A stretch of 18,053 nucleotides of DNA, from the IMG/VR virus record IMGVR_UViG_2563366942_000011. One strand, written 5' to 3'. Made by a program: the position numbers and the translations under genes. Below are positions 2,551 through 17,001 of this stretch, piece by piece. Under the pieces are notes generated by a model. It ran no database searches. It was not told where the DNA came from and was given only the letters and a program-made list of their open reading frames with translations. Numbering within the stretch: position 1 is the stretch's first letter; each line of letters opens with the position of its first letter. Source of the DNA: a virus (taxonomy: Duplodnaviria > Heunggongvirae > Uroviricota > Caudoviricetes).

Positions 2551-2835
2551 TTATTCAGTGCCGATATTTACCTTTATCGCGTATACCTTTACCGGTTTAT
2601 CACCGAAGTGCGGATGTGTGATTGTCTTCACTTCATATCCGTCATACGGAACATCAACTCTGCGGCTGGAATCGTCGCGCTTCGGATATCCCTTTGTGAT
2701 AATCAGGCGGTCATGCTTACGGTTAACGAGGCGCTTTTTCCAGTAGTCATTACACAGGCGATACTCTTCCGTTTTCTCTCCGCGAATCATGGCATCGAAG
2801 TATTCACCTTTAACGGCAAGTTGCAGGTTAGCCAC
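2551..2835 (-). CDS. ASCH/DUF3850-like small protein
   Basis: GTG start at 2835 six nt after AGGAG; N-terminal ...GEYFDAMIRGEKTEEYR... resembles the ASCH-type motif. The track ORF extends to 2919, but that extension overlaps the upstream gene. Confidence 0.55.
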   Translation of the reverse strand: MANLQLAVKGEYFDAMIRGEKTEEYRLCNDYWKKRLVNRKHDRLIITKGYPKRDDSSRRVDVPYDGYEVKTITHPHFGDKPVKVYAIKVNIGTE

Positions 2836-3568
2836 GGTTAACTCCTTGCTGTGTGGCGTCGAGTAATAAATCCCACAACCGCTGAGAGCAATTTCCGCAT
2901 GTACAGCGTTGACCCACAACGTTTATCGCGTTGCTGATTTCCGGCGTTACCTGTTTAGGAACCATAACCCAACCATCCGGAGTTACCGGAAGCGAGAACG
3001 GCAGCACATCTCTGTGAACAAGTTTTTGCTGTGACAGGTTATCCAGAACTTTCTGTACTGCTGCATCACCGAATACACCAAGCGCATCTGCCATAACTCC
3101 TACAACCTGATAAGCCTCAGCGCATACCGTGGATAAACCATCCGGAATTACCGGAGAGTTGCCGGGTTCTTTAATGTGCAAGCGAGGCTCACCATCTTTT
3201 GGCTCAGGCCACTGGCGCTCCATGTTGATCTTCAATTTATCTTCCATAGCAACGGTAATTTCAGCATCGCTGATGCCAGCACGGCGCTGTGCATCCCACA
3301 ACAGAAACTGCATATCAGCCCACTCGCTAAGATCGTCTGGTTCGGCTGCGGCTTCCAGTGCCTCTTTTGAGAGGTGTTTCAGTGGACCAATGGGGCCAAC
3401 GCAGCCAAATGTGGAGTCAGACCATTTGGCATGCTCGTGGCGAATCTGTTCGCGTTCCAGTGATGCCAGTGCAATTCGTGCTAGTTCCATTTGTTCGCCA
3501 CGAGTAAGCCCGTTTTCAAGCGGATTTTTAATGAACAATTCAATACGTTCTTTGGTAATAGTGGTCAT
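2828..3568 (-). CDS. Putative dATP/dGTP pyrophosphohydrolase-like protein (DUF550-type N-terminal domain) with C-terminal module
   Basis: 246-aa ORF; N-terminal MTTITKERIELF...GEQMELARIALASLEREQIRHEHAKW resembles the DUF550/MazG-like phage family as I recall it; ATGA overlap with the upstream gene. Confidence 0.65.
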   Translation of the reverse strand: MTTITKERIELFIKNPLENGLTRGEQMELARIALASLEREQIRHEHAKWSDSTFGCVGPIGPLKHLSKEALEAAAEPDDLSEWADMQFLLWDAQRRAGISDAEITVAMEDKLKINMERQWPEPKDGEPRLHIKEPGNSPVIPDGLSTVCAEAYQVVGVMADALGVFGDAAVQKVLDNLSQQKLVHRDVLPFSLPVTPDGWVMVPKQVTPEISNAINVVGQRCTCGNCSQRLWDLLLDATQQGVNRG

Positions 3569-10759: not shown

Positions 10760-11512
10760 TTATGCTGCAAGTCTCTTAACCCAAGTCTCTCTTTTGGAGA
10801 ATGGTAGAACTTGGCTTGATTCATGGAAGAGTAAGGAGAGTTGTTGCATTTGATCACCAATTGCTTCGCTGTCTATAACAACAAATCTGTTGTTATACTC
10901 CTCACTTGAAGCTTTAAGATCAATTAGTTTCCCAAGCAATGAGTAAGCACTATTCCAGCTTCCTCCGTGTTTCACGCTTGATGTAAAAACGTATTTAGGT
11001 ATGTCGGTTTTTATTGTTACAGGGACGGTAATTTGATGTCCACTCAAGCCATATACGTTTTCACGAAGAGAAAGTGCGTCTCTAAGCTCTGTGTGATATA
11101 GATAATCAATAACCATACTTTCAAACTTTTCAGCTTGAACTGGCTGATACCAGTCTAACGACAAAGTTGATGCGAGTATACCAGCTCTAATTATGTTCGA
11201 TGTAATCGCACCGACATCCTTTTCTGTTGCCCAAGCAATGATTTCTCCTCGAGCATTGAGTTCTGCGCCTTCTTTAAGCAGTAATTGTCGTATCTCATCA
11301 AGTCGTTTTTTGGTAAGCGAGATCCCTCTTGCCTCCATATTCATTAAGGCATCGCATCTGTCACTAACTAAATACCTACCATTGACTTCACGGATAAAGG
11401 CACCGACATGCTCTCCATCATCACAGTAAGTGAATGGACTGATAATTCTCAAGGTCTTGCCTATTGGATGGCATTCGAAACCTAGTTGTGAGATCACTGT
11501 TGAGCACATCAT
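10760..11512 (-). CDS. Uncharacterised 250-aa protein, distal gene of a two-gene cassette at the rexAB-equivalent locus
   Basis: ATG ATG start overlaps the upstream stop (ATGA); no long hydrophobic segments; AT-rich relative to flanks; no known family recognised. Confidence 0.8.
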   Translation of the reverse strand: MMCSTVISQLGFECHPIGKTLRIISPFTYCDDGEHVGAFIREVNGRYLVSDRCDALMNMEARGISLTKKRLDEIRQLLLKEGAELNARGEIIAWATEKDVGAITSNIIRAGILASTLSLDWYQPVQAEKFESMVIDYLYHTELRDALSLRENVYGLSGHQITVPVTIKTDIPKYVFTSSVKHGGSWNSAYSLLGKLIDLKASSEEYNNRFVVIDSEAIGDQMQQLSLLFHESSQVLPFSKRETWVKRLAA

Positions 11513-12066
11513 ATTCCAAACCCCATTTGCCCCGACTCATCTTCAAGCGGTAAAGGTATTCTCCCAGAGTAAGTTATGTTCAGATGTTTACAGAAGTAAT
11601 TCCAATACCCTACCAGGTCATCTGGGTTTATGTCATCTTCGATTGGAAACGCTATTCTATCACTATAGTATCCAGCTTCTTCATAGTATACATGGTAGTG
11701 AGCACCGTAAATGATATCTTGGTACTTCGGATGATCGACCTTGTAACTATTCGTGTGTTTGTCAAAGTGATAGGTATCTACCGCGAAAACCCTCTTGTTA
11801 TGATAGAAAGCAATAATATTTATTTTAGGGTAAGAAATCGGGTCATCAGGTTCTGAATCCTGATCTGGTTTCCATTTCAGTTCAAACTTTAGCCCTTGTA
11901 TAGGTATACAATCCTCATCCAAGGGGATGATATGGGCTTGTAGCCACATATCAGAGCGACTTGGTTTCTGTTTCCATTTAACGCCAGAAAAGTTAACTAT
12001 TTTTTTACAATAAAGTACTTTATCAACTTCTACTTGGCTTGGCTGATAATCATCTATTTTTGCCAA
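11509..12066 (-). CDS. Uncharacterised 185-aa protein, proximal gene of a two-gene cassette at the rexAB-equivalent locus
   Basis: Frame opens at TTG 12066 straight after an in-frame stop, 40 nt downstream of the cI stop; aromatic/His-rich stretch DHPKYQDIIYGAHYHVYYEEAGYY; AT-rich. Confidence 0.75.
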   Translation of the reverse strand: MAKIDDYQPSQVEVDKVLYCKKIVNFSGVKWKQKPSRSDMWLQAHIIPLDEDCIPIQGLKFELKWKPDQDSEPDDPISYPKINIIAFYHNKRVFAVDTYHFDKHTNSYKVDHPKYQDIIYGAHYHVYYEEAGYYSDRIAFPIEDDINPDDLVGYWNYFCKHLNITYSGRIPLPLEDESGQMGFGI

Positions 12067-15470: not shown

Positions 15471-15503
15471 CAGGCCTGCAGGTAATCGCAGGCCTTTTTA
15501 TTT
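15471..15503 (+). terminator. tR2-like intrinsic terminator
   Basis: AGGCCTGC-AGGTAATC-GCAGGCCT hairpin followed by TTTTTATTT, between ren and ninB. Confidence 0.8.
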
Positions 15504-15519: not shown

Positions 15520-15960
15520 ATGAAAAAACTAACCTTTGAAATTCGATCTCCGGCACATCAGCAAAACGCTATTCACGCAGTACAGCAAATCCTTCCAGAC
15601 CCAACCAAACCAATCGTAGTAACCATTCAGGAACGCAACCGCAGCTTAGACCAAAACAGGAAGCTATGGGCCTGCTTAGGTGACGTCTCTCGTCAGGTTG
15701 AATGGCATGGTCGCTGGCTGGATGCAGAAAGCTGGAAGTGTGTGTTTACCGCAGCATTAAAGCAGCAGGATGTTGTTCCTAACCTTGCCGGGAATGGCTT
15801 TGTGGTAATAGGCCAGTCAACCAGCAGGATGCGTGTAAGCGAATTTGCGGAGCTATTAGAGCTTATACAGGCATTCGGTACAGAGCGTGGCGTTAAGTGG
15901 TCAGACGAAGCGCGACTGGCTCTCGAATGGAAAGCGCGATGGGGAGATCGGGCTGCATGA
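15520..15960 (+). CDS. ninB: NinB (Orf recombination mediator)
   Basis: ATG at 15520 behind a GGGAGAGGGAAG RBS; MKKLTFEIRSPAHQQNAIHAVQQILPDPTKPIVVTIQERNRSLDQNRKLW..., matching lambda NinB as recalled. The track start at TTG 15502 is an over-extension. Confidence 0.93.
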   Translation: MKKLTFEIRSPAHQQNAIHAVQQILPDPTKPIVVTIQERNRSLDQNRKLWACLGDVSRQVEWHGRWLDAESWKCVFTAALKQQDVVPNLAGNGFVVIGQSTSRMRVSEFAELLELIQAFGTERGVKWSDEARLALEWKARWGDRAA

Positions 15961-16484
15961 CTATCAAATCAAATACGCCAGCACACGACAAGGACTGCTG
16001 GCAAACGCCGCTTTGGCTTTTTGATGCACTGGATATTGAGTTTGGATTCTGGCTGGATTCGGCAGCGAGCGACAAAAATGCTCTGTGCGCTCACTGGCTA
16101 ACTGAGGACGACGACGCGCTCAATTCTGAGTGGGTAAGCCACGGTGCAATCTGGAATAACCCACCGTACAGCAATATCAGGCCGTGGGTGGAAAAAGCCG
16201 CTGAGCAGTGTATACAACAGCGACAGACGGTAGTGATGCTTGTGCCAGAGGATATGTCTGTCGGATGGTTCAGCAAGGCTCTGGAGAGTGTTGACGAAGT
16301 TCGTATTATCACTGATGGACGGATTAATTTTATCGAACCATCGACAGGGCTGGAGAAGAAGGGAAACAGCAAAGGCTCCATGCTGCTGATTTGGCGACCG
16401 TTCATCAGTCCTCGACGGATGTTTACTACCGTATCCAAAGCGGCATTGATGGCGATCGGGCAGGGCGTCAGGAGGGCTGCATGA
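15957..16484 (+). CDS. Phage N6-adenine DNA methyltransferase (Dam-like, NPPY motif)
   Basis: Start ATG overlaps the ninB stop (ATGA); product [25 protein letters not shown]...[21 protein letters not shown]...[14 protein letters not shown], typical of the phage Dam-type family. The 195-aa track ORF is an over-extension. Confidence 0.85.
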
Positions 16485-16657
16485 GACGACAGCGACGAAG
16501 CATCACCGACATAATCTGCGAAAACTGCAAATACCTTCCAACGAAACGCTCCAGAAATAAACGCAAGCTAATCCCAAAAGAATCTGACGTAAAAACCTTC
16601 AATTACACAGCCCACCTGTGGGATATCCGGTGGCTAAGATATCGTGCGAGGAAATGA
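16481..16657 (+). CDS. ninE: NinE
   Basis: [58 protein letters not shown]; start overlaps the methyltransferase stop (ATGA). Confidence 0.85.
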
Positions 16658-17001
16658 CAATGGATTATTCACAGTTAAGTGATTTTGAAATTAACAGAAT
16701 GGTAGGAGACATAATTTTTAAAGGCCTTTGGGCAAGTAAACCGGAAACATCAGGGAATAACACCAACAAATGGTATTACGGAAATGCTGATACAACTTTT
16801 GAGCCATTAAATCATTTGCCTGACTACTGCAATGATCCGAGCGCTTCATGGCCGATTATTGAGAAATACAGGATTTCTATCTTAGACCAGTTAACTGAAT
16901 GGTGTGTGGATGCAAAAGGCGTAAGCCCAATATTTGATACCAGACCTCTCCGCGCCGCCATGATTGTCTTTCTCCTGATGCAGGAGGCCAATAATGCTTA
17001 G
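16654..17001 (+). CDS. Hypothetical nin-region protein (115 aa)
   Basis: ATG at 16654 behind a GAGGAA RBS, overlapping the ninE stop; [34 protein letters not shown]...; family not confidently recognised. Confidence 0.65.

Follow-up and report, generated by a model that had tools for sequence, protein, structure and literature searches.

The gene at positions 15957–16484 (plus strand) of the window, by which we mean the whole 18,053-nt stretch of DNA analysed, very probably encodes an active, stand-alone, AdoMet-dependent N6-adenine DNA methyltransferase of the HP1 Dam/M.EcoVT2Dam family, this being the best explanation of the evidence as a whole. The reading frame runs from an ATG at 15957 to a TGA at 16482–16484, specifies 175 residues, and lies between the recombination mediator gene ninB/orf (15520–15960, plus strand; PF05772, E = 1.1e-54) and ninE (16481–16657, plus strand; PF05322, E = 1.8e-41), so that the preliminary description, which had placed an ORF with an NPPY motif in this slot, is correct to the base. 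The 115-aa ORF downstream of ninE (16654–17001, plus strand) is ninX (DUF2591; PF10765, E = 8e-17; PHROG 444), and the order of genes in the window is O, P, ren, ninB, methyltransferase, ninE, ninX, rusA and a Q-like gene. The chain of ATGA stop/start overlaps that had been described for ninB, the methyltransferase gene, ninE and the 115-aa ORF is present at all three junctions (15957–15960, 16481–16484 and 16654–16657, respectively). Since ATGA overlaps also join O to P, P to ren, and rusA to the next gene, the device characterises the operon as a whole.

The start codon is supported by the homologues. Most of the full-length homologues aligned begin within a few residues of ATG 15957, and eleven begin exactly there; a GTG start at 15897 is thus not supported, and the longer ORF beginning at that codon was rejected on the basis of the homologue N-termini and the ATGA junction. 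A GGAG Shine–Dalgarno sequence (15943–15946, plus strand) is positioned inside the 3′ end of ninB, 10 nt 5′ of the ATG. One GATC site (15946–15949) overlaps the Shine–Dalgarno region and a second (16454–16457) lies about 30 nt 5′ of the stop codon; there is no evidence for a regulatory meaning of these two sites. Antisense ORFs within the gene, for example that at 16091–16438 on the minus strand, are without support and were taken as chance. Among database protein entries P0002, P0024 and P0005, some fuse the methyltransferase to NinE or to other neighbours. The methyltransferase–NinE fusion entries are 233–235 aa long and have 41 and 12 member sequences. Fusions of either kind are probably due to a changed ATGA junction or to errors of assembly or annotation.

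Profile searches place the protein unambiguously. Residues 4–169 match positions 1–167 of the 169-position profile PF05869 (E = 3.7e-65; 219.1 bits, cutoff 28.1), and the NCBIfam equivalog TIGR01712, phage N-6-adenine-methyltransferase, is matched with 265.6 bits (cutoff 97.05). The protein also matches PHROG 111 (DNA methyltransferase), and its best PADLOC matches are models of the category "orphan methyltransferase". The profile search gave no match to PF02086 (MethyltransfD12), the alpha-class family of E. coli Dam and T4 Dam, and the protein lacks the combination of PF02086 with a target-recognition domain between motifs III and IV that defines membership in that class. E. coli Dam, T4 Dam and DpnM have the same reported GATC target, the same chemistry and a Rossmann-type fold; the window enzyme shares the reported target of the host Dam, not its ancestry. 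The subfamily that the preliminary description proposed to define by profile search is therefore PF05869/TIGR01712, and its term "Dam-like" holds for the reported target but not for the family, which is that of the HP1 and VT2 phage enzymes rather than PF02086. Several enzymes were considered as relatives and rejected: the non-specific adenine methyltransferases Hia5, Hin1523 and Nma1821 (PMC3299994) are related to E. coli Dam and carry DPPY and FxGxG motifs, and M.EcoMIV, the prophage "Dam homolog" of ST131, belongs to PF02086, all of them falling in a different family, while M.EcoGIX ("SAY"/non-specific) is plasmid-borne, single-strand-specific and unrelated to the locus.

An alignment of 37 homologues, extending down to 59% identity, defines the conserved residues of the enzyme. 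Near the N-terminus, the D-x-W-x-T-P motif formed by D13-C-W-Q-T-P18 (codons at 15993–16010, plus strand) has invariant T17 and P18, while D13, W15 and Q16 are at least 90% conserved; by analogy with gamma-class enzymes, this segment would be motif X-like and would contact the methionine moiety of AdoMet. The segment L33-D-S-A-A-S38 (codons at 16053–16070, plus strand), in which L33, D34 and A36 are invariant, corresponds to a motif I-like AdoMet-binding strand and loop, and forms strand 31–34 in the AlphaFold model. The catalytic motif IV, N68-P-P-Y71 (AAC CCA CCG TAC; 16158–16169, plus strand), is invariant in all 37 homologues. Residues invariant down to 59% identity thus include T17, P18, D34, N68–Y71, F125, K139 and G140, among others, and the key residues that the preliminary description had wanted checked by motif alignment are all kept. 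The DxWxTP and LDxAA motifs are also common to the window protein and HP1 Dam, as seen in this alignment and in a pairwise alignment with HP1 orf13. As expected for the enzyme class, the target adenine would be flipped into the pocket formed by NPPY, where AdoMet, bound by the N-terminal DxWxTP and LDxAA motifs, would donate the methyl group.

The AlphaFold-predicted structure is confident and shows a small single-domain protein, within the range of about 170–180 aa, with a methyltransferase fold. The nearest folds are those of gamma-class enzymes such as M.TaqI, and the top structural match is PCIF1, an RNA cap adenosine methyltransferase; a search of PDB sequences returned chance-level matches only (E = 0.31 and 0.69), and thus no solved relative by sequence. 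Because the protein stops where the core fold stops, and because motif I and NPPY are separated by only about 30 residues, an unusually short spacing, the enzyme is predicted to be a bare gamma-type catalytic core with no target-recognition domain. In contrast, M.TaqI, other gamma-class enzymes and PCIF1 have 380–750 residues and carry separate domains for the recognition of DNA or RNA.

The target is most probably GATC, as suggested by the close identity of the window protein to an assigned enzyme and by secondary citations. Specifically, orf32 of VT2-Sakai, the only annotated methyltransferase of that phage, is identical to the window protein at 174 of 175 positions, the exception being D51, which is A in VT2-Sakai. 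M.EcoVT2Dam is listed as the orphan methyltransferase of prophage VT2-Sa in PMC6602927, where enzymes were classified against REBASE; the same paper gives GATC for M.EcoVT2Dam homologues, citing Radlinska and Bujnicki 2001, and reports no motif beyond GATC and one other assigned motif in strains that carry two copies. VT-2 and HP1 are named in PMC7556043 among the phages with genes for Dam-like proteins, with the remark that what phage Dam enzymes do "is still not well understood", and a GATC-digestion assay of the DpnI/MboI type is applied there to a phage GATC methyltransferase of the MT-A70 family. Digestion assays of this type, however, cannot exclude extra, relaxed targets. Moreover, with the recognition domain missing, a strict 4-bp specificity is mechanistically unexplained, and recognition would have to come from loops of the core. 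We conjecture that loops such as residues 127–140, which include the invariant K139–G140, contribute, possibly together with oligomerisation or dimerisation. That GATC is read in an unconventional way, by obligate dimerisation or by core loops alone, or that the specificity is looser than a digest-based assignment implies, is a prospect to which we give a small probability.

The composition of the window is unremarkable with respect to this target. GATC occurs 53 times against 70 expected, which is neither notable over- nor under-representation and speaks neither for nor against a restriction-driven role. Other 4-bp palindromes, GATC included, are near expectation in the window, whereas CTAG is very rare, with 7 occurrences against about 70 expected from base composition. 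CTAG avoidance is a known enterobacterial trait.

The closest known systems are M.EcoVT2Dam (VT2-Sakai orf32), 933W orf10 and the gene of phage 434, which have equal length, occupy the same ninB–ninE slot and show the same overlaps as in the window; the backbones differ, that of the window being of an ev017-like Jouyvirus and those of the VT2-Sakai/933W-type relatives being of Stx phages. HP1 Dam (orf13, 173 aa), the founding member of PF05869, is of the same family and size, with 38% identity over 150 residues, and shares the motifs DKD-W-TP, LD-A and NPPYS with the window protein. HP1, however, is a P2-like phage, and its dam ends the early operon beside a MazG-like gene rather than lying in a nin region. 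More distant homologues are found in T1-like phages (Drexlerviridae), such as tonn and tiwna, with 34–35% identity over residues 5–147; the T1-like Dam proteins are longer (profile of about 237 aa) and belong to virulent phages. T1 Dam methylates GATC.

The methyltransferase gene behaves as a cassette of the nin region. It is flanked by an 11-bp direct repeat, GGGCTGCATGA, one copy of which (15950–15960, plus strand) spans the ninB stop and the methyltransferase start, and the other (16474–16484, plus strand) the methyltransferase stop and the ninE start. In lambda an identical GGGCTGCATGA is found at the ninB/ninC junction, and ninC and ninD, which the preliminary description correctly placed between ninB and ninE of lambda, thus occupy the slot after ninB at the same junction; the proteins are unrelated to the methyltransferase, and lambda NinC is annotated as PAPS-reductase-like. 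A weak tblastn match in Chi-like Salmonella phages that is labelled "PAPS reductase" is a 228-aa protein, and the label is doubtful. As a query for empty sites, we used a synthetic sequence of 120 nt consisting of the last 60 nt of ninB and the first 60 nt past the methyltransferase stop. This query matches CUS-3 and JEP4 as one uninterrupted piece with 95.8% identity. In CUS-3, ninB is annotated as directly abutting ninE, and the alignment puts the junction at GGGCGGCATGA (positions 740–760 of the extract). The repeat and the empty sites show that the mosaic nin region may contain or lack the methyltransferase gene, a mobile cassette that, judged by these alignments, is exchanged at a short conserved boundary sequence. 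The earlier word "inserted" can thus be taken literally. The cassette agrees with the known mosaicism of lambdoid phages and introduces no new principle.

The gene is widespread. The protein is 100% identical in phages ev017, ev207 and PhiR57_1, 99.4% identical to 933W orf10 and 98.3% identical to the gene of phage 434, which is annotated as "DNA adenine methyltransferase"; the ninB–ninE slot is where the gene lies in 933W, in VT2-Sakai, in 434 and in every other record inspected. A protein search found a homologue in 2158 phage records, 244 of them at least 95% identical, and the ninB–methyltransferase–ninE arrangement recurs in hundreds of phages. At the DNA level, 1566 of 5426 complete E. 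coli genomes (about 29%) carry the gene, with up to five copies per genome. Carriers include Nissle 1917 and the E. coli type strain, in which PGAP applies the label "phage N-6-adenine-methyltransferase". The feature is therefore an ordinary gene that is already known and routinely annotated in lambda-like E. coli phages.

As a whole, the window shares 99.9% identity with the lambdoid Jouyvirus Escherichia phage ev017. Relative to ev017, a 768-bp IS1 is inserted at 1219–1986, with InsA/InsB on the minus strand, terminal inverted repeats, and a 9-bp target duplication, CAAAACGGG, at 1210–1218 and 1987–1995. The element interrupts the excisionase gene, leaving only the first 53 of the 78 residues of Xis, and the prophage copy is therefore probably excision-defective. 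Two overlapping minus-strand genes (10760–11512 and 11509–12066) lie between N and cI, the position of lambda rexAB. They match the PADLOC candidate defence system PDC-M24 (B, E = 7e-10; A, E = 5e-4) as well as Pfam DUF1828 and DUF6978, and from these matches may form a prophage-encoded defence pair. An early-left gene (2828–3568, minus strand), given as DUF550 in ev017, is now assigned to PF04447, dATP/dGTP pyrophosphohydrolase (E = 8e-42).

The position of the methyltransferase gene suggests how it would be expressed. A tR2-like intrinsic terminator, consisting of a hairpin and a T-run (15472–15503, plus strand), is located between ren and ninB, upstream of the nin chain; the hairpin (15472–15495) has 8 pairs, 6 of them G–C, and is followed by TTTTATTT. 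In 933W, a rho-independent terminator is annotated just after ren; it lies within the ninA homologue and precedes ninB by about 0.9 kb. The genes from ninB onward therefore have the features of a lambdoid nin region, being located between the replication genes and Q, packed by ATGA overlaps and downstream of a tR2-type terminator. In lambda, the nin region beyond tR2 is transcribed from pR in the delayed-early phase after N antitermination. By its position, the gene would likewise be transcribed from pR after N-mediated readthrough of the tR2-like terminator, and ninB, the methyltransferase gene, ninE and ninX would be translated in a coupled manner via their ATGA overlaps. The "coupled early expression" of the preliminary description is in keeping with the ATGA chain, and because the hairpin at 15472–15495 precedes ninB, it is better called delayed-early and probably N-antitermination-dependent. 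Promoter-like matches near the gene are in no excess (7, against 6.8 in shuffled sequence).

The most likely role of the enzyme is to top up GATC methylation on fast-replicating phage DNA left incomplete by the host Dam. Virion DNA of lambda and P22 is under-methylated by host Dam (PMC8022706), and fully methylated progeny genomes would be spared by enzymes that cleave GATC when it is unmethylated. Mismatch repair, replication or the stability of lysogeny may also be affected. As a counterpoint, E. coli hosts already possess Dam, which makes the selective advantage to the phage less obvious. The literature on the nin region together with methyltransferases yielded nothing specific to the role of this gene. 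A different emphasis would put the main role in the lysogen, where the prophage gene, expressed at a low level, would add to the activity of host Dam, stabilise lysogeny or alter host gene expression epigenetically. In its favour, the putative Dam methyltransferase of Stx phage Phi24B was detected in lysogen cultures (PMC3342100), and a passage of the same paper that cites Murphy et al. 2008 states that stable 933W lysogeny needs host Dam. Lysogen cultures, however, contain spontaneously induced cells, and host Dam already methylates GATC; moreover, cro, cII, O, P, ren and the terminator-like hairpin all precede the gene in the pR operon, and the promoter-like matches near it are no commoner than in shuffled sequence. 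We therefore regard a main role in the lysogen as unlikely, and as a weaker alternative to the completion of methylation on replicating phage DNA.

The remaining readings concern what the enzyme does rather than when. A specificity relaxed or broader than GATC, for instance towards many adenine contexts, making the enzyme a broad anti-restriction modifier like the non-specific phage adenine methyltransferases, would fit the absence of a target-recognition domain from the predicted structure; near-non-specific adenine methyltransferases do occur in phages and prophages, namely Hia5 and Hin1523 (PMC3299994) and that of the Serratia prophage OS31 (PMC7556043), and extra targets would be invisible to restriction digests at GATC. 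Yet the non-specific enzymes are of other families, as noted above for Hia5, the VT2-type homologues are assigned GATC in PMC6602927, and the motifs of the two-copy strains speak against further targets, with the proviso that a silent prophage gene would not show; we judge this reading quite improbable. Less probable still is an inactive relic, or an enzyme acting on RNA or protein instead of DNA. The match to the RNA cap enzyme PCIF1 and the short region from motif I to NPPY might point that way, but the catalytic motifs are invariant across genera, the match to TIGR01712 is at equivalog level, an enzyme of almost the same sequence is listed as a DNA methyltransferase, and synonymous codon differences from the VT2-Sakai and 933W genes outnumber non-synonymous ones (8–10 against 1). 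The least probable reading, and in our view a very improbable one, makes the enzyme the methylase of a restriction-modification system with its endonuclease encoded elsewhere. In its favour stand only the general fact that many Type II methyltransferases have partners and two weak, partial PADLOC matches to Type II methyltransferase models. Against it, the gene is joined on either side to a nin gene by a 4-nt overlap, the three-gene arrangement is found in phage after phage, and the best PADLOC models are those of orphan enzymes. In agreement with the preliminary description, we found no restriction-enzyme family among the genes of the window, and the designation "orphan" therefore holds within 18 kb.

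The stand-alone GATC methyltransferase that we favour thus carries little weight as a discovery, and its worth lies in correct annotation. The questions that it raises, what a second GATC methylase does for lambdoid and Shiga-toxin phages in hosts that already possess Dam and how specificity is achieved without a recognition domain, concern the family as a whole rather than this window. If the enzyme were less specific, a very common prophage gene would be a broad anti-restriction factor and not a Dam mimic.
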